Assembly: GCA_022720335.1 (NCBI GenBank)
Contig: JAIHVJ010000001.1
Coordinates: forward strand, 1-49,450
From: Collinsella sp.
Lineage (GTDB): Bacteria > Actinomycetota > Coriobacteriia > Coriobacteriales > Coriobacteriaceae
DNA length: 49,450 bases
Reading direction: 5' to 3'
Shown here: positions 7,968 to 49,319 of the stretch, in pieces
Numbering within the stretch: position 1 is the first letter of the stretch
Layout of the letters: every line of letters starts with the position of its first letter
The notes under the pieces: generated by a model
What the model was told of the DNA's origin: nothing
The model's input: only the letters and a program-made list of their open reading frames with translations
Database searches by the model: none
Made by a program: the position numbers and the translations under genes

Positions 7968-8867
7968 TCAAGCGCTCAAAAAACGTGTGGTGTCTTGCGC
8001 TGCTGTGGTCACACCGCCAAAGAGCACGTGGTTCCAAGGATAATCGTCAAACGTCGCAATCTTAAGACCAGCCGGTAACGAGGGTCCCAACTGCGCCAGA
8101 GCCTCGGTCAGACGCAGGAAGACCAGGCCGTTGACGGCAATCAGGCCGAGCTTTTTGCCGGCATAGTCACGCATGGTCTCGTCCAAGCGGCCGATGCCCG
8201 TGGCGCCACCGTCGGCCAGGGTGACAACCTCGCCCGCAAGTCCGCGGCGCGAAAGCTCGTCGGTAAAGGCCTCGGCGCGCTCTCGACGCACGGGGCTATC
8301 GTCGCTTGCCTCGGTGAGCAGGCACAGGCGCTCGCTGCCCGCAGCGGCCAAGGCGTCTACCAAGCCGGCGACTAGCTCACGGTTGTTAGATGTCACCAGA
8401 TCGACACCGCCGTCGGCAACGTCGCGGTCGAGCAGCACAACGGGCAGACGTCCCGCTGCCGCGGCGATCGCCTCGTCATTGCCTCCGCAGGTGTTGACGA
8501 CCAGGCCGTCCACGCCGGCATCGATAAGCCTGGTGAGCGACTCCGCTTCCTTAGCGGGGTCGTTGCCGCTAATGGCCGTCATGAGCGAGCAGCCGCGCGC
8601 GGCGGCGCTGACGGAAAGCCCTTCGAGCATGGCGCTGGAGAACGGGTTGGCGATGTCGGCCAGGATCACGCCGATGAGGTTGGTGCGCGAGCTGCGTAGA
8701 TTGCGCGCGGCGGCACGCGGGCGATAGCCGGTGCGCTCGATAACCGCCGCGATGCGAGCACGGGTTTCCTCAGTCATTTGCCCGGGGCGGTTGTTGAGAT
8801 AGCGCGAGACCGTGGCCGGGCTCACGCCCGCCTCGGCGGCAATGTCCTTGATTCTCATCTGCGCCAT
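7968..8867 (-). CDS. LacI-family regulator (KdgR/RegR-like), C-terminally truncated
   Basis: IKDIAAEAGVSPATVSRYLN HTH and periplasmic-binding-like domain; stops right after VTTAAQD, lacking the usual last helix and strand. Divergent from kdgK. Confidence 0.8.
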   Translation of the reverse strand: MAQMRIKDIAAEAGVSPATVSRYLNNRPGQMTEETRARIAAVIERTGYRPRAAARNLRSSRTNLIGVILADIANPFSSAMLEGLSVSAAARGCSLMTAISGNDPAKEAESLTRLIDAGVDGLVVNTCGGNDEAIAAAAGRLPVVLLDRDVADGGVDLVTSNNRELVAGLVDALAAAGSERLCLLTEASDDSPVRRERAEAFTDELSRRGLAGEVVTLADGGATGIGRLDETMRDYAGKKLGLIAVNGLVFLRLTEALAQLGPSLPAGLKIATFDDYPWNHVLFGGVTTAAQDTTRFLSA

Positions 8868-8932: not shown

Positions 8933-8997
8933 TTGCAAAACGCTGTAGGTGAGTATACTACAACTCGAAACGAAACCGATTTCGTAAACCGATTTCG
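8933..8997 (+). promoter_or_regulatory. kdgK promoter with tandem LacI-type operators
   Basis: TTGCAA (8933) - N15 - TATACT (8954), then CGAAACCGATTTCG (8971-8984) and AAACCGATTTCG (8986-8997). Confidence 0.7.
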
Positions 8998-9001
8998 GTG
9001 A

Positions 9002-9059
9002 GCGTTGGCACGCAGGTGCAAAGACGCACCCTACCGTCTTGGCACCTGCGTGCCAACGC
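9002..9059 (+). ncRNA. Candidate structured 5' leader hairpin, copy 1 (CACCCUAC loop)
   Basis: 18-bp stem, A.G mismatch, 6-bp stem, loop CACCCTAC; homologue with compensatory changes at 12934-12993. Confidence 0.55.
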
Positions 9060-9102: not shown

Positions 9103-10137
9103 ATGGGTAAAACGGTTCTTACCTTCGGCGAGATCATGATGAGGCTATCGCCCAAAGACCACCTGCGCATTGAGCAGGCGACCGAGTTTGATGTCCGCTA
9201 CGGCGGCGCCGAGGCAAACACCGCGCTTTCCCTGGCCTACCAGGGCGACAAGGCCGCTTACGTCTCCGTTGTCCCGGCCAACCGTCTGGGCGAGTGCGCC
9301 CTGCGTTCGCTGAAGGCCTACGGCGTCGACACCACGCGCGTCGTGCGTCAGGGCGACCGTCTTGGCTCCTATGTGTTTGAGGTCGGTGCCTCGCAGCGCG
9401 GCAACGGCTGCGTCTACGACCGCAAGTTCTCTGCCATCAACATGGCCAAGCGCGATGTTTTTGACTGGGACGAGATCCTCAAGGGCATCGATGTCTTCTA
9501 CTTCTCCGGCGTGACCCCCGCCGTCTCCGACGAGATGGCCGCCGCCTGCAAGGAGGCTCTCGCCGTCTGCCGCGCCAAGGGCATCACCACCGTGTGCGAC
9601 GTGAACTATCGCGGCAAGATGTGGTCGCCCGAGAAGTCGCAGGCCACCATGAGGGAACTCCTGCCGCTCGTCGACATCTGCATCGCCAACGACGAGGATG
9701 CGCCTGCTGGCCTCGGTATGACCTGCGTCTCTGGCTCCCTTGCCCACGGCATCGAGGAGCGCGACACCTATGTCGAGATGGCCCGTCAGATCTGCGCCGA
9801 GTACGGCTGCAAGAAGGTCGCCTCGGTCGTCCGTAACATCTCCTGCGTCGAGCGCTCCATCTGGATGGGCATGCTCTTTGAGGCCGAGAGCGGCGAGCAC
9901 TGGTTCTCCCCTGCTCACGACGTGCACGTACTCGAGGGCGTTGCCGCCGGCGACGCTTTCAACGCCGGCCTCGTCCATGCCCTCATCAACGACTTTGACC
10001 CGCAGGACGCTGTCAACTACGCGATTGCAGCCTCGATCCTCAAGCTCACTATCAAGGGCGACTCCAACTTGGTGACCGCAGACGAGATCGCTGCCGTGGC
10101 CAACGCCGCCGACGGCGGCACCCGCGTCGCCCGTTAA
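9103..10137 (+). CDS. kdgK: 2-keto-3-deoxygluconate kinase (PfkB family)
   Basis: TFGEIMMRLSP, YGGAEANTA, DVNYRGKMWS, AGDAFNAG; AGGAG RBS; adjacent to eda. Confidence 0.9.
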   Translation: MGKTVLTFGEIMMRLSPKDHLRIEQATEFDVRYGGAEANTALSLAYQGDKAAYVSVVPANRLGECALRSLKAYGVDTTRVVRQGDRLGSYVFEVGASQRGNGCVYDRKFSAINMAKRDVFDWDEILKGIDVFYFSGVTPAVSDEMAAACKEALAVCRAKGITTVCDVNYRGKMWSPEKSQATMRELLPLVDICIANDEDAPAGLGMTCVSGSLAHGIEERDTYVEMARQICAEYGCKKVASVVRNISCVERSIWMGMLFEAESGEHWFSPAHDVHVLEGVAAGDAFNAGLVHALINDFDPQDAVNYAIAASILKLTIKGDSNLVTADEIAAVANAADGGTRVAR

Positions 10138-10224
10138 TTCGTTCCCCATTCCGCGGGCTGCAGTTTCCCATACCCATACCCCTGCAGCCCGCTCCCCGAT
10201 TCCTCCGGCCAGGTAGAACCACTT

Positions 10225-10343
10225 AGTCCCATTCCGGCTCTGCCTGGCATTCCTTCACGACTGGCCTCGTAGCCGGTTCCGAAATTGCTTGTGACCCAAG
10301 CAGTGCCTCCGATAACCAATCCGGAACCGGCTCATGGCCAATC
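10225..10343 (+). ncRNA. Candidate structured intergenic element, copy 1 (AGCAGUGCCUCCGAUAA core)
   Basis: Shares AGTCCCATTCCGGC, ACGACTG and AGCAGTGCCTCCGATAA with 13030-13140; 11-bp closing stem AGCCGGTTCCG / CGGAACCGGCT. Confidence 0.5.
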
Positions 10344-10391
10344 TTCTTAGCAATAACGCGCACTCGCGCGCCGTACATCGAAAGGAACATC

Positions 10392-11033
10392 ATGTTCGAT
10401 CAGTTCTACACCACGCTTGAGTCCCTGGGCATCGTGCCGGTCGTCGTGCTCGACAAGGTCGAGGATGCCGCTCCGCTCGCTCACGCCCTTATGGCCGCCG
10501 GCATGAAGTCCGCCGAGGTCACCTTCCGCACCGCTTGCGCCGCCGAGTGCATCGCCGCCATGGCCGAGGCCGAGCCCGAGATGTGCGTTGGTGCCGGCAC
10601 CGTCCTGACCGTCGAGCAGGTCGAGCAGGCCCGTGCCGCCGGCGCCAAGTTCATCGTCTCCCCGGGCTACAACGAAGACGTCGTCAAGCACTGCATCGAC
10701 ATCGACCTGCCCGTGCTGCCCGGCACCGTGACCCCCTCCGAGGTCACCGCTGCCGTCAACCTGGGTCTCAAGGTCACCAAGTTCTTCCCGGCAGCCCAGT
10801 ACGGCGGCCTCAACAACATCAAGGCCCTCGCCGCTCCGTTTGTCGGCCACCGCTTTATGCCCACCGGCGGCGTGAGCACCGCAAACGTCGAGGAGTACCT
10901 GAGCTCCTCCGCCATCATCGCCTGCGGTGGCACCTGGATGGTCAAGCCGGCCCTGTTCGTCGACGGCGACTTCTCCAAGGTCGAGCAGATCGCTCGCGAG
11001 GCCATGGACGTCGTCAAGAAGGTCCGCGCCTAA
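10392..11033 (+). CDS. eda: KHG/KDPG aldolase
   Basis: EVTFRT, VGAGTVL, FIVSPG, KFFPA, PTGGV motifs. Confidence 0.95.
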   Translation: MFDQFYTTLESLGIVPVVVLDKVEDAAPLAHALMAAGMKSAEVTFRTACAAECIAAMAEAEPEMCVGAGTVLTVEQVEQARAAGAKFIVSPGYNEDVVKHCIDIDLPVLPGTVTPSEVTAAVNLGLKVTKFFPAAQYGGLNNIKALAAPFVGHRFMPTGGVSTANVEEYLSSSAIIACGGTWMVKPALFVDGDFSKVEQIAREAMDVVKKVRA

Positions 11034-11051: not shown

Positions 11052-11082
11052 AGGGCGCGATCTAGACCGCGCCCTCTTTTTT
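11052..11082 (+). terminator. Intrinsic terminator after eda
   Basis: AGGGCGCG / CGCGCCCT stem followed by a T-run. Confidence 0.75.
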
Positions 11083-11329
11083 GAAGCGGCTCGGAAGCGT
11101 GCCGTTTCCGTCACGGACAAGAACCGAAACCGTCTTGTATGCTGATAGAACGTGACGGAAGCGACACGCCCCCGAGCCGCTTTTTCTTCGGCTGAACCTT
11201 TGCCCCAACATAGTCCAGAGCGCAAAAACAAATGCGGTGCCGTCTGGAGGAATCGACCCCTTGCTTCCGGTCTGTTCCTCCAAACGGCACCGCAGCTTTT
11301 TGCTTGCGAGCGAGCCTTGCCCCCAACGC

Positions 11330-11396
11330 AGTTGCGGTGAAATAGGGACTGCCTGCGCCTCCTGGGCCGCAAAACAATCCCTATTTCACCGCAACT
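11330..11396. repeat. 67-bp palindromic repeat, copy 1
   Basis: AGTTGCGGTGAAATAGGGA ... TCCCTATTTCACCGCAACT. Confidence 0.85.
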
Positions 11397-11410
11397 TATA
11401 AGGGGATAGA

Positions 11411-12161: not shown

Positions 12162-12228
12162 AGTTGCGGTGAAATAGTTCCTGCTCGCAGCCTTCAGCAG
12201 CAAAACCAGGAACTATTCCACCGCAACT
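12162..12228. repeat. 67-bp palindromic repeat, copy 2
   Basis: AGTTGCGGTGAAATAGTTCCTG ... CAGGAACTATTCCACCGCAACT. Confidence 0.85.
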
Positions 12229-12248
12229 TATGAGGGGGCGAAGGGGTT

Positions 12249-12791: not shown

Positions 12792-12930
12792 CGAAATCGG
12801 TTTCGAGCATGTCCTTGCCATGATACCGCCAACGAGTTGTTTCGATTAGGTGAACGTTCCCTTTTTATTATTTTTCTCTTTGCAAAAAGAATCCCGTGCG
12901 TATACTAAGGCTCAAGCGAAACCGATTTCG
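12792..12930. promoter_or_regulatory. Divergent promoter region with two types of LacI operators
   Basis: CGAAATCGGTTTCG (12792-12805), AGGTGAACGTTCCCT (12848-12862), TTGCAA (12880) - N15 - TATACT (12901), CGAAACCGATTTCG (12917-12930). Confidence 0.7.
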
Positions 12931-12933
12931 TTA

Positions 12934-12993
12934 AGCGTGGGCAATAGGATGCTAAGACGCACCCTACCATCTTGGCATCCTATTGCCCACGCT
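12934..12993 (+). ncRNA. Candidate structured 5' leader hairpin, copy 2 (CACCCUAC loop)
   Basis: 19-bp stem AGCGTGGGCAATAGGATGC / GCATCCTATTGCCCACGCT with the same apical AAGACG-CACCCTAC-CRTCTT as copy 1. Confidence 0.55.
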
Positions 12994-13029
12994 ATGTCAT
13001 TTGCTTTCCTCCCGTCTCGTTGGCCCTTC

Positions 13030-13140
13030 AGTCCCATTCCGGCACAGCGAGACATTTCCTAGACGACTGACCGTGGGGCCGGCTTTTCTGCTTTTACAGC
13101 AGTGCCTCCGATAATCCTCTTTTGCCGGCCCAGGTCAGCC
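13030..13140 (+). ncRNA. Candidate structured element, copy 2 (AGCAGUGCCUCCGAUAA core)
   Basis: Homologous to 10225-10343; stems CTGACC/GGTCAG, GGGCCGGC/GCCGGCCC and CTGCT/AGCAG. Confidence 0.5.
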
Positions 13141-13173
13141 CTTTTCTTCACAACCGAAAGGACGGGTAGCAGC

Positions 13174-13854
13174 ATGCGACCGCTCATCATCATGAATGGC
13201 GAGAAGATCGATTGGTGCCACACCGTCATTAGGATGCTGATGTATTTAGCAGGCGTCGCGACGCTTGCCCTCGGCATGAGCATTCAGACCGCTTCGGGCC
13301 TGGGCGTCGCCGCGCTTACCTGTTTTGCCACAACGTTGTCCATGTTGACCGGCAAGACACTCGGCTTTTGGATTACCGCGACCTATGTCGCCTACATTGC
13401 CGCACAGGCAGCCATCTTGCGCCGCGAGTTTCAGCCGCGCATTTTGCTCGAGCTCTTTTTCTCAACGCTGATCGGCGGCTTTACCGATTTCTTTATGAAC
13501 GTTAACCCTCTGCACCCCACCGCGCTGCCGGCACAGGTCGTAACCATGCTGCTCTCGCTTGCCATCACCGCGTTTGGCGTAAGCCTCGTCGTCAATATGG
13601 GCGTCGTTCCCAACGCACCCGACGGCTTGGTACAGGTCATTGCCGAAAAGTTCAAATGCCGCTTTGGCGATGTGAAGGTCGTATTCGATTGCTCGCACGT
13701 CGCCGCCTCGCTCGCGCTGTCGCTGGTCTTTATGCACAACCTGGGCGGCTTTGGCGTCACGACCGCCATCTCGGCACTGTTCCTGGGCCATGTCATCAAC
13801 GTCGCCAATAAGCTCTTCGCCCAGCGCTTTATCCGCGTGGCCTTTGGAAAATAG
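13174..13854 (+). CDS. YczE/YyaS (YitT/DUF6198-like) membrane protein
   Basis: Multiple TM helices, SGLGV, VVPNAPDGLV, GDVKVVFD, GVTTAISALFLG pattern; GAAAGGA RBS. Confidence 0.75.
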   Translation: MRPLIIMNGEKIDWCHTVIRMLMYLAGVATLALGMSIQTASGLGVAALTCFATTLSMLTGKTLGFWITATYVAYIAAQAAILRREFQPRILLELFFSTLIGGFTDFFMNVNPLHPTALPAQVVTMLLSLAITAFGVSLVVNMGVVPNAPDGLVQVIAEKFKCRFGDVKVVFDCSHVAASLALSLVFMHNLGGFGVTTAISALFLGHVINVANKLFAQRFIRVAFGK

Positions 13855-13880: not shown

Positions 13881-13950
13881 GCTATACGTTGCTATATCTC
13901 ACTATACTTTGCTATATCTTGCTATACTTTGCTATATCTTGCTATATTTT
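13881..13950 (+). repeat. Seven tandem 10-bp repeats (GCTATAYyTT)
   Basis: gctatacgtt gctatatctc actatacttt gctatatctt gctatacttt gctatatctt gctatatttt, ending just before the ATPase RBS. Confidence 0.9.
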
Positions 13951-13967
13951 GAGCAAAGGTGGCTCGC

Positions 13968-18028: not shown

Positions 18029-18095
18029 AGTTGCGGTGAAATAGGGATTGATTTTGACTTCTACCAGGCAAGACGGTCCGTATTTCACCGCAAGT
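18029..18095. repeat. 67-bp palindromic repeat, copy 3
   Basis: AGTTGCGGTGAAATA ... TATTTCACCGCAAGT. Confidence 0.8.
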
Positions 18096-18118
18096 TAGAA
18101 ATAGGAAGGTATTTCGCA

Positions 18119-18887: not shown

Positions 18888-19253
18888 TTAGGATTCCTCG
18901 ATAATCTGTCGGCATGCCGCTGCAAGAGCGGGAAACTCTGATGTCACCGCGTCCCAAACCACGGCGCGATCGACGTTGCCGTAATCATGGGCAAGATAGT
19001 TACGCATCCCCACTATACCGCGCCACTCAATCTCGGGATGTAGTCGCTGCGCCTTCTCGGACAGCTTACCCGCCTCCTCCGTCACCCTGAGGGCACACAT
19101 AAGGAGAGAATCGGCGAGTGTCCTGGCCTTGATGTCATCCGCATGGAGGAACTCGTCTTCCGTCACACCGAACGCTTTGATTCTCTCGGTCGTCTCATCA
19201 ATCGCCTCGAGAATCTCCTGGGCGCGCAACGCATCTGATTTACGGGCGAACAT
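18888..19253 (-). CDS. HEPN (DUF86/HepT-like) ribonuclease toxin
   Basis: EWRGIVGMRNYLAHDY carries the R-X4-H RNase motif; start overlaps the upstream antitoxin stop. Confidence 0.88.
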   Translation of the reverse strand: MFARKSDALRAQEILEAIDETTERIKAFGVTEDEFLHADDIKARTLADSLLMCALRVTEEAGKLSEKAQRLHPEIEWRGIVGMRNYLAHDYGNVDRAVVWDAVTSEFPALAAACRQIIEES

Positions 19254-19728
19254 ACAGCACCACACCCTCCCTCTCGATGGCATGCGCAATGTCTTCTCGC
19301 AAGTGTTCGCTCGAAACGACGTCGACCTGCTTGCCTGTTGCCTCTTTGATCTCCTCCGCGAACGAGGAAAGAGCGAATAACCCAAATGTCGCATCGGAAT
19401 CGACCTCTATACGCAGGTCGATATCGCTATCGGTATTTGCGTCACGTCGAGCATACGAGCCGAACAACGTGACCGACCGAATCGCCTTTCGAGTACCCGC
19501 CGCGCGAGCAACGGCATCCCTGATTTCAGCAACGGTCAAAACGTCGGTCTTCGCCTCGTCCCGTTTGACTGAAAGAGAAGGGGTAAATGGAAGCGACCGC
19601 TCCCGCAGCATCTGACGCATGAACATGTTGACCGCCACGGAAGACGTCATGCCGAGCTCCTCGCAGAGCTCGGCAAACGATTCCTTAATTGATGCATCAA
19701 CACGGACGCTCAAAACTGAAGCACTCAT
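19240..19728 (-). CDS. RelB/DinJ RHH domain fused to a minimal nucleotidyltransferase (MNT) antitoxin
   Basis: N-terminal VLSVRVD..ELGMTSSVAVNMFMRQ..SLPF (RelB/DinJ); C-terminal LFGSYARRDANTDSDIDL (GS-X10-DXD). AGGAGG RBS. Confidence 0.85.
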   Translation of the reverse strand: MSASVLSVRVDASIKESFAELCEELGMTSSVAVNMFMRQMLRERSLPFTPSLSVKRDEAKTDVLTVAEIRDAVARAAGTRKAIRSVTLFGSYARRDANTDSDIDLRIEVDSDATFGLFALSSFAEEIKEATGKQVDVVSSEHLREDIAHAIEREGVVLYVRP

Positions 19729-21926: not shown

Positions 21927-21993
21927 AGTTGCGGTGGAATAGTTCCTGAATGAGGCGCTTGGGGCACCAAGCAGAAACTATTTCACCGCAACT
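21927..21993. repeat. 67-bp palindromic repeat, copy 4
   Basis: AGTTGCGGTGGAATAGTT ... AACTATTTCACCGCAACT. Confidence 0.85.
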
Positions 21994-22009
21994 GATGGGC
22001 GGGATGGAG

Positions 22010-35268: not shown

Positions 35269-36744
<1,476 letters not shown>

Positions 36745-36885
36745 TCATCTATTAAATGTCATCTAAACCCGTCCGAGCTGCAAGTGCAAACACGGACGGC
36801 GCACCTGCTAAGGGGAATGGGGAAAAGGGAGTCAACAAAGCCATCCCCCTTAACGGCGCGAAGCAAACGTCCAGGCGGACGAATA

Positions 36886-44845: not shown

Positions 44846-45628
44846 ATGGATAAGCGAGATCTTGAGCAATTGCTGAGCGATGTTGCCGACGGAGCAGTCG
44901 CCCCGGCAGTCGCCCTCACGCGCATCCAGACGGCGCCAACTGCCGATCTGGGTTTTGCGCAGCTCGATCTTTCGCGCGGGGTGCGCCAGGGAGCCGGCGA
45001 GGTTGTCTACGGTGCCGGTAAAACCGCCGAGCAGATTGCCGCCATTATCGAAGCACTGCGCGATGCCGGCCAGGAGCGCATCCTGGTCACGCGCCTGGAT
45101 GCCGAAAAAGCCGCTCGCACCGCTGAGCTTCTCGGCAACGGCATTGACCTGGGATATGTCCCGAACGCACAGCTCGCCCTCGTGGGCGGCAAGCCCTCCC
45201 CTACCGGCAACGGACGCATCGTCGTCGCCTGCGCCGGCACGAGCGACTTGCCCGTCGCCGAGGAAGCCGCGTTGACGGCCGAATTCTATGGCAACGAGGT
45301 CGACCGCCTCTACGACGTGGGTGTCGCCGGCCTGCACCGCCTGCTCGCGCATGCCGAGGAACTTGCGCAGGCGCAGGTGATCATTGCCGTCGCCGGCATG
45401 GAGGGCGCGTTGGCGAGCGTTATCGGCGGCCTGGTGAGCTGTCCGGTCATCGCCGTTCCCACCAGCGTGGGCTACGGCGCAAGCTTTGGTGGCGTAGCCG
45501 CGCTGCTCGCCATGCTCAACTCCTGTGCCAGCGGCGTTTCGGTCGTCAATATCGACAACGGCTTTGGTGCCGCCTACCAGGCAAGTCTTATCAATCATCT
45601 GAGCGCCGGCACATCCCGCGCCCGATAA
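44846..45628 (+). CDS. larB: Nickel-pincer cofactor biosynthesis protein LarB
   Basis: GEVVYGAGKT, AGTSDLPVAEEA, DVGVAGLHRL, VAGMEGAL, PTSVGYG, VVNIDNGFGAA. Confidence 0.93.
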   Translation: MDKRDLEQLLSDVADGAVAPAVALTRIQTAPTADLGFAQLDLSRGVRQGAGEVVYGAGKTAEQIAAIIEALRDAGQERILVTRLDAEKAARTAELLGNGIDLGYVPNAQLALVGGKPSPTGNGRIVVACAGTSDLPVAEEAALTAEFYGNEVDRLYDVGVAGLHRLLAHAEELAQAQVIIAVAGMEGALASVIGGLVSCPVIAVPTSVGYGASFGGVAALLAMLNSCASGVSVVNIDNGFGAAYQASLINHLSAGTSRAR

Positions 45629-45638
45629 GGAGCATTCC

Positions 45639-46550
45639 ATGTCCAACCATCAGCACACGCTTATCATCGACGGTACCTCGGGCATCAGCGGCGATATGAC
45701 CGTCGCGGCCCTGCTCGACCTGGGCGCCAGCGAGGAGCACCTGCGCGAACAGCTCGCCACGCTGCCGGTCGACGGCTTTACGATCGCCGTCACGCGCGTA
45801 AACAAGCATGGCATCGACGCCTGCGATTTCGACGTTCAGCTGGCAGAAGAGCTCGAGAACCACGACCACGACATGGCATGGCTCTACGGCAACGAAGCAG
45901 CTGCCGAGCACACGCACGAGCACGAGCACCACCATCATGACCATGACGAGCATGAGCACTGCCATGAGCATGATCATGAGACCCACGGCCATGGCCACGA
46001 GGGTCACCATCACGCCCACCACCATCACCACCGTTCTTTGGCGGACGTCACCGCTATCATCGACGGCTCGCAGCTAAGCGATGGCGCCAAGCGCCGTGCG
46101 CTCGCCATCTTTACCGCGCTCGCCGCCGCCGAGGCAAAGGCCCACGGCAAAAAGCCCGAGACCGTCATGTTCCACGAGGTAGGCGCCGTCGATTCCATCG
46201 TCGACGTCTGCTCTGTCGCCATCTGCCTCGATGACCTAGGTATTGAGGACATCGTGGTCGAGTCGCTCTCCGAAGGCCACGGAACCATTCGCTGCGCCCA
46301 CGGCCTTATGCCCATTCCCGTCCCCGCTGTCGTCAACCTGTGCCAGGCGGGCAATATCGCCCTCACGCCCGCACCGGTCGCTGGCGAGCTCGTGACGCCC
46401 ACGGGCGCCGCCATCGTCACCGCGCTGCGCACGTCCGAGCACCTGCCGGCACGCTACCACATCGAAGCCGTCGGCTACGGCGCCGGCAAGCGCCCCTACG
46501 AGGGTTGCTCCGGCACGCTCCGTTGTCTACTCGTTCACGTGGATGCATAG
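45639..46550 (+). CDS. larC: Nickel insertion protein LarC, N-terminal (LarC1-like) part only
   Basis: SGISGDM, His-rich tract, AEAKAHG..FHEVGAVDSIVD, GELVTPTGAAI, GYGAG; ends before the LarC2 domain. Confidence 0.88.
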   Translation: MSNHQHTLIIDGTSGISGDMTVAALLDLGASEEHLREQLATLPVDGFTIAVTRVNKHGIDACDFDVQLAEELENHDHDMAWLYGNEAAAEHTHEHEHHHHDHDEHEHCHEHDHETHGHGHEGHHHAHHHHHRSLADVTAIIDGSQLSDGAKRRALAIFTALAAAEAKAHGKKPETVMFHEVGAVDSIVDVCSVAICLDDLGIEDIVVESLSEGHGTIRCAHGLMPIPVPAVVNLCQAGNIALTPAPVAGELVTPTGAAIVTALRTSEHLPARYHIEAVGYGAGKRPYEGCSGTLRCLLVHVDA

Positions 46551-46552
46551 CC

Positions 46553-47092
46553 ATGGATGCCCGCAAAGAAAAAAGCCGCGCTGCCATCGTTGCAGCGTTC
46601 TCCGAGCTGCTACGCGAAGAGGATTACGGCAAGATTACCGTCGGCGACATCATCGCTCGTGCCCATGTTGGTCGGGCCACATTCTACGGCCTCTTTAAGA
46701 GCAAAGACGACCTACTGTCCGAGCTCGTGAGCGACATCTGCGCCCACGCCCTCGACGACGATGGTACGCCGCTCGACGACCCACTCGTGCAAGTCGAGCA
46801 TATCCTCAACAACCTCTGGGAACGCCGTCAGGGCGTTCGAGCCCTCGTAGCCGGAGCCGGCTCGCGCGTCTTCGCCGACTGTCTCCGCAAGACCATCATG
46901 TCACGAGCAGCCGAAACCGTCCCTACCGACCCAAACGGCCCCGCCGCCACCATGGACCGAAGCTTCCTACTACACCACATAGCCTCAAGCTTCGTAGGAA
47001 TGGTCCAATGGTGGGCCTGGCACAACTTCCAAGCAGATAAGGCCGAAGTAGCCAAAGACTACCTATCAGCCATAAAGCCCCTCTTCACCTAA
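46553..47092 (+). CDS. TetR/AcrR-family regulator
   Basis: MDARKEKSRAAI..ITVGDIIARAHVGRATFY HTH; ATG 2 nt after the larC stop. Confidence 0.88.
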   Translation: MDARKEKSRAAIVAAFSELLREEDYGKITVGDIIARAHVGRATFYGLFKSKDDLLSELVSDICAHALDDDGTPLDDPLVQVEHILNNLWERRQGVRALVAGAGSRVFADCLRKTIMSRAAETVPTDPNGPAATMDRSFLLHHIASSFVGMVQWWAWHNFQADKAEVAKDYLSAIKPLFT

Positions 47093-47260
47093 ACACCCCA
47101 TCCCATTCCAAGGCGGCGCCCCTTCCCAAAGCACCGCCCTCATCTCAAAGCACCCAACAGCCAAGCGCCCACCACATCCAAATTCAGATATATATGTGGG
47201 TTGCTTGTTCGAACGCAACAAAGACCCCATGCGGTCAGCGGACAACTATGTAGCCTTTGA

Positions 47261-47992
47261 CTAGAACATGCCCAAGAAACCGTGCACAAACAGTGCGGCC
47301 AGAGCGGCACCGATAAACGGTGCGATGCCAGGAACAAGCAGGCCATACTTCCAGTTGTTGTCGGCCTTGTTCTTGATCGGCAGTACCTGGTAAGCCATGC
47401 GAGGACCAAGGTCACGAGCCTGGTTCATGGCGAAGCCGGTGATACCGCCCATGCCCATGCCAACGGCCCAAACGATCAGACCGACGCAGATGGCGAGCAT
47501 CAAAACGTTCTCGCCAGCGCGGCTAGCGGCAGCAAGGATGGCGCTGATGAACACGAAGGTGCAGATGGCCTCACAGAAGAAGTTGCGGGCATAGTTCGTG
47601 CCCTCGGTGGTGGGGTTGGTCGAGAAGATGTTGCGCTGGGCAATGGGGTCGACGACGCCCTCGGAAGCCTTGAACTCATCGGCATACATCAACCAAGCGA
47701 TTACGGCGCCCACAAAGCCGCCGAGCATATCGGCAAGCATGAAGGGGATGCAGCTGCTCCACGGCACCAGGCCTACGATGCACTGGGCAAGCACCATGGC
47801 GGGGTTCATGCACACGGCGCCGCCAAAGACAAACAGGCAGACCGAGATGCCAAAAGACCAGGTGGTGATGGCAAACATGTGACCGGAGCCCTGATACTTG
47901 GTGCCCTTGAGCACGGTATCGCAGTGTACGCCCACGCCAAAGATGATCATGAGGGCCGTTGCGCCGAATTCGCAGAGGAGTTTGGTAAGCAT
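47261..47992 (-). CDS. MIP/aquaglyceroporin (LarD/GlpF-like channel)
   Basis: NPA and NQARDLGPR motifs, 6 TM helices; downstream of larA. Confidence 0.88.
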   Translation of the reverse strand: MLTKLLCEFGATALMIIFGVGVHCDTVLKGTKYQGSGHMFAITTWSFGISVCLFVFGGAVCMNPAMVLAQCIVGLVPWSSCIPFMLADMLGGFVGAVIAWLMYADEFKASEGVVDPIAQRNIFSTNPTTEGTNYARNFFCEAICTFVFISAILAAASRAGENVLMLAICVGLIVWAVGMGMGGITGFAMNQARDLGPRMAYQVLPIKNKADNNWKYGLLVPGIAPFIGAALAALFVHGFLGMF

Positions 47993-48041
47993 AAAACCTT
48001 ATCTTTCTTGTCGGTTATAAACGATTCGTTTAGGCCGCGTA

Positions 48042-49319
48042 CTAGTGCTGCGCGACGACAACGCCCAGGCCATCGGGAATGACGGCCACCTTGGCATCGG
48101 CACCCTTCATCTCAAAGGCGAGCTTGAGCGCCTCATCGAGAGTGTTGACCGGCGTCATGTGCATATCCTTGATCATCTGGTGATTGCACAGATCGGTAAC
48201 CATGATCACAGGGTGATGCGCCAGGATGCGGGCAAAGATCTGGCTCGTCCACTGGTCGGGCAGGGTCTCGTCCTTGGGACGATCGATGCAGGCACGCTCA
48301 AACTCCGCCGGATCGTTGTCGGCGATGTTGTGATAGAAGCCCTCGCCACCGTGGCCGTCGGCACAACCGGCGACGTCGATGATCACGCCGCCCTCGGGAA
48401 GCGTAGCCTCGGCAGAGCACATGCCCTTCACGGCCTGATAGATGTTCTGGTCGAGCGGGTAGCCGCCGTTGGTGGTGATGGCGATCTCGCACTCGACGGG
48501 CTCAACGCCGGCAAGGCTCTTCACGAACTCGCAGCCAGCCTCGTGTGCCTTATGGATGTCGCCTGCAAAGGAGCCGATAACCTCGTGCTTGCCGTTGAGC
48601 ACCACATTAAGCACAAAGGCAAGGTGAGCCATCTCGGCAGCGGCAAACATGTCCTCGCTCACGTGGTTGTGGCACAGGTTGCCGGCACGCGAATGGGAAT
48701 CGTTCACAAACTGACCGTTGTGGTTGTACATGATGGTCTTGTAGCTGGCGATGCCAGGCAGGACGGACTTGCGGCTACCAGAGAAACCGGCAAAGAAGTG
48801 CGGCTCAATAAAGCCCTCGGCAAGCAGCAGATCGCAATCGGCAGCAATCTTGTTGATGATGCACTCGCCACCAGAAGGCAGGGTGCCGATCTTTTTCATC
48901 ATGCTGTCGTCAGTCGCGACGTGCATAACGATTTCCTCGTTGGCAACGATCTCCTCGCCGTACTTGTTGACGAGCTCCTCGTGCGTCGACGGACGATGCA
49001 TACCCGTAGCAACCAAAATACGCACTCGAGCCTCGGGCGCAGCGGAATGGATGTGATGCAGCAGAATAGGCATCGTCACACGCGAGGGAACGGGGCGCGT
49101 ATGATCGGAGCTAATAATGACGATATCCTTCTTGCCAGCACAAAGCTCCTCGAGCGAAGGCGAACCATAAGGGTTGGCAAGCGACTCCTCTACCAGCTCT
49201 TCCTGCGATTTTGTAGTCTTAAACTCGTTTTGATGACCTTCCATCACACCCGCGAAGTTCTTATCCTCGAGCTCCAGATGCAACGTCTTGTGGTCAAACG
49301 GCAGTTCACATTCAAACAA
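48042..49319 (-). CDS. larA: Nickel-pincer-dependent lactate racemase family protein
   Basis: SDHTRP, ATGMHR, EPHFFAGFSGSRKS, GGYPLDQNIYQAVKG; probable TTG start at 49319 after an AAAGGA RBS. Confidence 0.9.
   Translation of the reverse strand: MFECELPFDHKTLHLELEDKNFAGVMEGHQNEFKTTKSQEELVEESLANPYGSPSLEELCAGKKDIVIISSDHTRPVPSRVTMPILLHHIHSAAPEARVRILVATGMHRPSTHEELVNKYGEEIVANEEIVMHVATDDSMMKKIGTLPSGGECIINKIAADCDLLLAEGFIEPHFFAGFSGSRKSVLPGIASYKTIMYNHNGQFVNDSHSRAGNLCHNHVSEDMFAAAEMAHLAFVLNVVLNGKHEVIGSFAGDIHKAHEAGCEFVKSLAGVEPVECEIAITTNGGYPLDQNIYQAVKGMCSAEATLPEGGVIIDVAGCADGHGGEGFYHNIADNDPAEFERACIDRPKDETLPDQWTSQIFARILAHHPVIMVTDLCNHQMIKDMHMTPVNTLDEALKLAFEMKGADAKVAVIPDGLGVVVAQH

Follow-up and report, generated by a model that had tools for sequence, protein, structure and literature searches.

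Paired hairpins with conserved C-rich loops in the leaders of hexuronate genes in a Collinsella lineage

Two copies of an RNA element, each made of two hairpins (H2 and H3), lie in a 49,450-nucleotide stretch of Collinsella DNA (the window; source assembly 2.6 Mb, 59.8% GC, 94% complete), one in the spacer between kdgK and eda and the other in the leader of yczE, a gene for a DUF6198 membrane protein. The element is real and under selection, and its loops are selected more strongly than its stems. It apparently represents a lineage-restricted structured RNA that has not been described before. Because the stems have changed and the exposed C-rich loops have not, the element probably serves as a docking site for a specific RNA or protein rather than as a metabolite sensor. 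It is likely that some partner recognizes it sequence-specifically, and the best reading, to which we give a probability of roughly 0.38, is that it forms a scaffold whose C-rich seeds pair in trans.

Anatomy and genomic setting

An earlier note on this DNA had described a twice-present structured element with three shared blocks, and all three are where it placed them: the 14-mer AGTCCCATTCCGGC (10225-10238 and 13030-13043), ACGACTG (10257-10263 and 13063-13069) and the 17-mer AGCAGTGCCTCCGATAA (10299-10315 and 13098-13114). The 17-mer has 2 matches at two or fewer mismatches where 0.02 are expected, a number reached by 0 of 100 shuffles. Folding reproduces the claimed stems, AGCCGGTTCCG/CGGAACCGGCT and GGGCCGGC/GCCGGCCC, as well as the TGCT-loop-AGCA cap, and CGAAAGGA does lie (at 10379 and 13155) 36 and 15 nt past the ends assigned to the two copies. 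The bounds themselves need revision, however, as the 14-mer supplies the loop and the 3′ strand of H2, a covarying hairpin in its own right that begins farther 5′, and each copy is larger than had been proposed.

H2 is a hairpin of 12-13 bp, and H3 is a long stem with interruptions that carries a small cap and, on its 3′ side, an internal loop (Table 1). A further hairpin, H1, stands first in both leaders, and H0 is specific to the eda spacer. The kdgK-eda spacer and the yczE leader fold with z = -8.25 and z = -8.33, respectively, with 0 of 200 shuffles equally stable, and the H2 and H3 loops are predicted to be unpaired (0.86-0.94). The earlier note suggested that H1 and the element may form a single bipartite RNA system. 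Folds of the whole spacer and the whole leader gave no pairing between H1 and H2/H3; a single duplication of the segment from promoter to RBS would suffice to explain their co-occurrence.

Table 1. Features of the locus and the ndk leader hairpin, in window positions unless a contig is named
Feature	Position	Strand	Remarks
LacI-family repressor	7968..8867	-	Pfam LacI and Peripla_BP; divergent from kdgK
Promoter-like P1 (TTGCAA ... TATACT)	8933..8959	+	Sequence reading, by resemblance to P2; absent from promoter scan output
Two LacI-type operator-like palindromes (CGAAACCGATTTCG)	8971..8997		Related sites upstream of distant kdgK orthologues
H1 hairpin, kdgK leader	9002..9059	+	Loop CACCCUAC (9027-9034); fold z -7.76; repeat family D10
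kdgK-like PfkB sugar kinase	9103..10137	+	
H0 hairpin	10153..10192	+	Loop UUUCCCAUACCCAUACCC; eda spacer only; CCCAUA exact in 15/15 distinct spacers
H2 copy 1	10208..10248	+	15-nt loop 10221-10235 ends with AGUCCCAUUCC (10225-10235)
Single-stranded linker	10249..10260	+	Conserved
H3 copy 1	10261..10341	+	Basal stem, middle stem (10271-10281 with 10322-10332), cap hairpin, 3′ internal loop UGCCUCCGAUAA (10304-10315)
RBS of eda (CGAAAGGA)	10379..10386	+	
eda, KDPG/KHG aldolase	10392..11033	+	TIGR01182 above cut-off
Intrinsic terminator-like hairpin 3′ of eda	11052..11083	+	
Promoter-like P2 (TTTGCA ... TATACT)	12879..12906	+	Promoter scan; paralogous to P1
LacI-type operator-like palindrome	12917..12930		Pairwise diversity 0.004; another at 12792-12805
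H1 hairpin, yczE leader	12935..12992	+	Loop CACCCUAC (12960-12967), exact in 73/80 leaders
H2 copy 2	13014..13053	+	Loop 13026-13040 ends with AGUCCCAUUCC (13030-13040)
H3 copy 2	13067..13138	+	Internal loop UGCCUCCGAUAA at 13103-13114
RBS of yczE-like gene (CGAAAGGA)	13155..13162	+	
DUF6198 membrane protein (YczE-like gene of the earlier note)	13174..13854	+	PF19700
ndk leader hairpin	G000:C106:3165-3180		Loop GGAAUGGGACU, exact complement of H2 loop; probable 5′ leader; NDK domain

The gene order is lacI (minus strand), kdgK, eda, gntR (minus), HIT (minus) and the DUF6198 membrane gene, and nearby are genes for a 5-ketogluconate reductase and a GPH transporter together with uxaA-like, uxaB and uxaC genes. 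The lacI-kdgK-eda locus and its uxa neighbours thus point to the hexuronate pathway. Both kdgK and yczE are preceded by a paralogous promoter-like region with TATACT and a CGAAACCGATTTCG palindrome, and sites akin to these palindromes occur upstream of distant kdgK orthologues. From what is known of its family, the LacI-type repressor is likely to regulate both promoters, and the promoter-like and operator-like sites suggest that the transcripts carrying the two copies both begin with the CACCCUAC hairpin. Contigs assembled from RNA runs, which carry neither transcript ends nor levels, span both copies. The same operator-like palindrome lies upstream of another gene on contigs C56 and C447 of the genome (G000), which suggests a LacI regulon wider than this locus; from its N-terminus we take that gene to resemble lactate dehydrogenase.

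Other features of the window were also recorded. Beyond the eda terminator are two long imperfect hairpins (11085-11310), and in some relatives the DUF6198 gene directly follows hairpins of this type without a leader of its own. Tandem 10-nt repeats (TTGCTATA(C/T)T-like) occupy the promoter region of an AAA ATPase gene (13881-13951), and a RelB-nucleotidyltransferase fusion adjoins a HepT-like ribonuclease (18888-19728, minus), likely forming an MNT-HEPN toxin-antitoxin pair. A long hairpin with a 20-nt C/U-rich loop lies in the spacer (36733-36885, minus) that separates an ebgC-like gene from an APC transporter gene, an aspS RNA motif (RF02930; 43851-43934, minus) lies upstream of the aspartate-tRNA ligase gene, and the lactate racemase genes larB, larC, larD and larA are found at 44846-49319.

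Covarying stems, conserved loops and range

When 15 eda-type and 15 yczE-type copies are aligned with plain MAFFT, 97.5% of the 570 cells are paired, compared with 27-43% in slid controls, and 0 of 500 shuffles equal this value. Two-sided changes occur in 9 of 19 pairs, much of this joint signal being supplied by the split between the paralogues, which is one event. Among eda-type copies alone, 98.0% of 684 cells are paired and 4 of 36 pairs show two-sided changes, and the yczE-type copies have stem swaps of their own. Distinct variant pair types comprise 19 G-U against 8 A-C, which favours an RNA read from the plus strand; a minus-strand reading, as a GGA sponge, was rejected on these variants and on the failure to find CsrA. 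One model-fitted alignment (29 rows) misplaces the cap hairpin in 5 rows, alifold on the yczE-type copies missed the H2 stem through misalignment, and one false-positive row was left out of the counts of variant pairs, weak matches and RBS pairing.

The consensus sequences of the two paralogues agree at 12 of 26 positions in the H2 stem, 12 of 14 in the H2 loop and 11 of 13 in the linker; for H3, the corresponding values are 29 of 46 in the stems, 14 of 18 in the internal loop and 8 of 23 at other unpaired bases. To avoid ascertainment, loci were also picked by protein. This yielded 88 yczE loci, 80 with promoter and leader, 4 with a different upstream region and 4 that were too short. Exact copies of AGTCCCATTC and GCCTCCGATAA are present in all 80 leaders, those of the 17-mer and of CACCCTAC in 73, and those of ACGACTG in 53. 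The 17-mer is therefore not invariant as had been thought; its AGCAG is a stem strand, and in some strains the U-A pair of the cap is replaced by C-G.

Pairwise diversity among 48 distinct yczE leaders is 0.007 in the H2 loop, 0.003 in the H3 loop and 0.021 in the H1 loop, compared with 0.004 in the operator, 0.063 in stems and 0.103 at other unpaired bases. Likewise, the H2 and H3 loops are invariant in 15 distinct eda spacers (stems 0.083, other unpaired bases 0.133), the silent-site yardstick being a diversity of 0.15 at 172 four-fold sites of kdgK. These pair and diversity counts bear out the central proposal of the earlier note, a conserved covarying RNA structure with conserved unpaired bases. 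That note had named a lack of covariation with uniform decay as the outcome that would speak against it; instead, stems covary and loops are far less diverse than stems.

A covariance model of both types scores 87 of 151 Collinsella genomes as positive, all at 122-152 bits with no intermediate scores. It recovers two full copies in the genome studied here, and the type strain of the gut bacterium Collinsella aerofaciens, ATCC 25986, carries the eda copy. The element pattern matches in at least 152 genomes, and the 80 named matches listed comprise 76 Collinsella, 1 Coriobacteriaceae bacterium and 3 uncultured bacterium entries. With strict filters and 39 candidates scored per genome, the model did not find the element in a hand-picked set of 80 genomes, made up of 18 Collinsella (including 5 aerofaciens-like ones without a pattern match), 6 other Coriobacteriaceae and 56 from other families; 75 of the 80 lie outside the aerofaciens-like group. 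Three weak matches in this set were discarded, two reading as coding sequence and one as a terminator hairpin. At 14 distant kdgK orthologues (61-78% identity) the spacers are short and lack the element, and on both lines of evidence it was not found in the genomes searched outside the aerofaciens-like group.

At the two corresponding positions, the Collinsella genome G061 carries simple hairpins whose loops are rich in C and U. Strong model matches lie on separate contigs in G349 (C53 and C67, both of eda length) and in G378 (C3 and C7), and these may be extra copies or assembly duplicates. A phage or plasmid origin was rejected, as three viral pattern matches were chance occurrences without structure and phage and plasmid collections gave no BLAST match. 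Four AGTCCCATTCCGGC matches outside the genus showed no sign of the element. With Rfam 15, the aspS motif is the one gathering-score match in the window, and nothing overlaps H2/H3 at E up to 10.

Candidate partners and competing explanations

As covariation and conservation show, the element in its mRNA leader or spacer combines stable, sequence-tolerant stems with fixed C-rich single strands that remain exposed. These strands may serve as seeds for pairing in trans, without Hfq, to G-rich stretches of other mRNA leaders, in the manner proposed for 6C/B11 and cuckoo RNAs. The RNA would be made upon release of the LacI repressor during growth on uronates or KDG, and its active form could be either part of the mRNA or a fragment excised by RNase Y. 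The predicted partner of the H2 loop is the ndk 5′ leader loop GGAAUGGGACU, and the H3 loop could use CCUCC to bind ribosome sites of the GGAGG type. The genome encodes Rho and RNase Y; searches of this 94%-complete sequence found no Hfq, CsrA or RNase E/G.

The sequence AGUCCCAUUCC/AGTCCCATTCC occurs four times on the two strands of the 2.6-Mb genome, each time in the loop of a hairpin that is noncoding or located at a stop codon: in the two H2 copies, in a hairpin of the ygeY-ygeW spacer and antisense to the ndk leader loop. Of 20,000 shuffled 11-mers, only 0.3% are found in one or more of the 2,717 loops predicted in intergenic DNA. Among 2,159 leaders, a set that is approximate because gene starts outside the window come from a purpose-made codon-score caller, ndk gives the strongest predicted duplex with each of the H2 copies (-30.9 and -35.2 kcal/mol, against -27.0 for the next leader), and none of 14 shuffles attains -35.2 kcal/mol. 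The 11-bp duplex between the loops is worth about -17 kcal/mol net of opening costs, with kissing geometry outside the calculation. Moreover, all 11 distinct leaders found via the motif keep the ndk loop intact, as do all 5 genomes that were searched with flanking DNA.

The ndk match was noticed post hoc, and its rank depends on the query. Whole-leader BLAST gives E 0.12 for a 16-nt match. When the 15-nt loop alone is used, ndk comes second and 11 of 14 shuffles equal the best real match; with 20 nt and accessibility correction, it is ninth of 60 re-scored leaders. No compensatory changes between the loops and ndk were seen, and G028, G192 and G258 combine deviant loops with the usual ndk loop. 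In other lineages the ndk loop is different in 8 of 8 leaders, including that of G187 (93% protein identity; stem kept), and ndk was not found in 7 of 15 genomes. Because all carriers form one lineage, the co-occurrence of element and ndk loop is not independent. The H1 and H3 loops have no standout target among leaders, and the H2 and H3 loops rank unremarkably against the start regions of kdgK, eda and yczE. H0 scores in the top 1% against the start of a uronate transporter gene, which was also noticed post hoc. Pairing of the loops to 16S rRNA was considered and dropped, as it does not exceed shuffles (longest-run test 19, 45, 118 and 120 of 200).

The hairpin on G000:C173 that repeats the H2 loop covers the ygeY stop codon, ahead of ygeW, with a stem unrelated to that of H2; the AG of its loop belongs to the stop codon, and the loop is exact in 14 of 15 distinct aerofaciens-group sequences. 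The spacer as a whole, in a purine/urate degradation cluster (G000:C173:908-1126, minus), forms four hairpins, for which there is no Rfam match at gathering level among matches with E of 5 or less. A second loop in it, with core UCUCCCAUGCUU (UCCCCAUGCUU in G075), is held by different stems across five Collinsella genomes, and this ygeW-leader core is conserved more deeply than the H2/H3 element. The loop is kept in G061, G068, G075 and G117, in which ndk was not found; a AGCATGGGAAA stretch in the first three was rejected as its partner because it sits inside an open reading frame. It is conceivable, although we think it unlikely, that a chaperone-free network of mRNA-mRNA kissing loops joins the G-rich ndk leader loop to the exactly complementary C-rich loops of the uronate (eda, yczE) and purine-degradation (ygeY-ygeW) operons and couples nucleotide supply to the carbon or purine source.

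Recognition of the loops by a protein or nuclease is nearly as probable as pairing in trans. A core, UCCCAU-N-C, is common to loops with unrelated stems, the next base differing, in H2 (UCCCAUUCC), H0 (UCCCAUACC), the ygeY-stop hairpin and the ygeW leader (UCUCCCAUGCUU), and such sharing points also to a protein reader. The elements are placed between or ahead of cistrons, RNase Y and Rho are encoded, and the part of PMC10311766 drawn on here offers a precedent. Loops with CCCAU.C lie in sense rather than antisense orientation by 7 to 1 in this genome and by 3 to 1 in 800 kb of G061, but this bias is weak, the counts are small and the motif was picked post hoc; YTCCCATDCYY is not above its reversed control in 26 genomes. 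No candidate protein was identified, CsrA and RNase E/G being among those not found, and a protein reader would make the exact ndk complement a coincidence and would not account for the H1 and H3 loops.

It is doubtful that the hairpins are passive stabilizers or domesticated REP-like palindromes, spread by one duplication, with loops that are G-poor filler. The genome is rich in palindromic repeats; the arm CAGTCCCTATTCC of one family is one base off the H2 loop, and another family has GTCCCATTCC in 1 of 22 copies. The absence of the element at the 14 distant kdgK orthologues and the other upstream region at 4 of the 84 yczE loci with enough flank also fit this explanation. However, diversity in the loops is as low as in the operator, whereas other unpaired bases vary (0.10-0.13), and the paralogues P1 and P2 have drifted apart in the middle of the promoter spacer. 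In addition, C/U-rich loops show no general preference for the sense strand (16 versus 20; 5 versus 6), the covariance model finds no dispersed copies, and varying arms with fixed loops are the opposite of REP-like palindromes.

Palindromes of the REP-like type, 72 nt long with conserved arms and a variable centre, occur in the window at 11330-11401, 12162-12233, 18029-18100 and 21927-21998, and the family gives 87 strand-hits (about 44 copies) genome-wide. A second palindromic family (GAAA..TCCC...GGGA..TTTC) has 22 intergenic copies, on contigs C219, C220, C418, C434, C458 and others, often in arrays with a period of ~61 nt; none is present in 800 kb of G061.

The earlier note proposed a riboswitch-like or protein-binding fold in which CCUCC could act as an anti-Shine-Dalgarno, and a switch for KDG, KDPG or a uronate would account for the pathway genes downstream of both copies, the conserved unpaired bases and the asymmetric internal loop of H3. 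We consider such a switch very improbable. The best fold avoiding H3 costs about 14.5 kcal/mol (14.6 and 14.5 for the two copies), as computed by folding programs blind to tertiary and ligand-bound states. The conserved bases are pyrimidine-rich single strands for which no complement was found within the RNA, no terminator is called 3′ of H3, no Rfam match appears to E = 10, and the motif was found in one species complex only; the LacI operator would presumably already offer ligand control. Nor does CCUCC reach the RBS, with a mean pairing probability of 0.000 (maximum 0.016) over 87 eda-type and 67 yczE-type leaders. That site is GAAAGGA rather than GGAGG, and in yczE it is partly occluded by a U/C tract 3′ of H3, not by CCUCC. 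A self-cleaving ribozyme, for which the conserved unpaired bases and nothing else speak, is scarcely credible, as ribozyme families give no match at E up to 10 and the loops have no visible pseudoknot partner.

Relation to known RNAs

The literature searched on RNAs of Collinsella and Coriobacteriia, on C-rich loops and on mRNA-mRNA pairing yielded no description of the element, nor did we find RNA regulators of this kind described for Coriobacteriia. Catalogues of the Weinberg 2017 type were covered via Rfam only. In the portion of the PMC8040213 table (3,161 candidates) drawn on here, no Collinsella row is present among 3 KDPG_aldolase, 1 YczE, 1 ygeW and 9 of 12 KdgK places, and an earlier unnamed prediction may exist elsewhere in it. 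Two other candidate structured RNAs from the same host group, Collinsella-1 (RF01700, in the part of PMC2864571 used) and aspS (RF02930), have models that do not match the element.

The element is recently evolved and duplicated and has loops conserved at the level of an operator, which makes it a small, directly testable entry point to post-transcriptional control in a commensal common in the human gut. Its narrow range and putative partner limit the interest for now. The ndk kiss, if true, would be an unusual case of one loop sequence common to several mRNAs.

Three known systems resemble the element in part. Cuckoo/CcsR RNAs of Alphaproteobacteria (RSs0680, ar14), in the sections of PMC4615179 consulted, likewise consist of neighbouring hairpins whose stems vary and whose C-rich, anti-SD-like loops are fixed, and have paralogous copies co-transcribed with a protein gene; 2-4 adjacent hairpins of this description are what the Collinsella leaders contain. 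Cuckoo RNAs, however, repeat CCUCCUCCC in every apical loop, whereas the element has CACCCUAC, AGUCCCAUUCC and UGCCUCCGAUAA, one of them internal, and RSs0680a is bound by Hfq, whereas the element lies inside leaders and spacers of a genome in which Hfq was not found.

The 6C/B11 RNAs share an actinobacterial host and C-rich loops proposed as pairing seeds, the model cited in the part of PMC7142372 used here being that these loops pair with G-rich stretches of mRNAs. 6C is a stand-alone, widely conserved gene with two hairpins and loop runs of at least six C; the longest C run within the conserved loops of the element is three, and the element was found in one species complex only and has no Rfam match. 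SRPS of the Ruminiclostridium cip-cel operon (PMC10311766, in the portion cited) are, like the element, stable hairpins rich in GC that lie between the cistrons of a catabolic operon, and the kdgK-eda spacer shows this trait (z -8.25). In SRPS, stems and structure guide cleavage, whereas in the element the loop sequence is most conserved. We conclude that the element probably acts like the cuckoo and 6C seed scaffolds or like SRPS signals while being a member of neither group.
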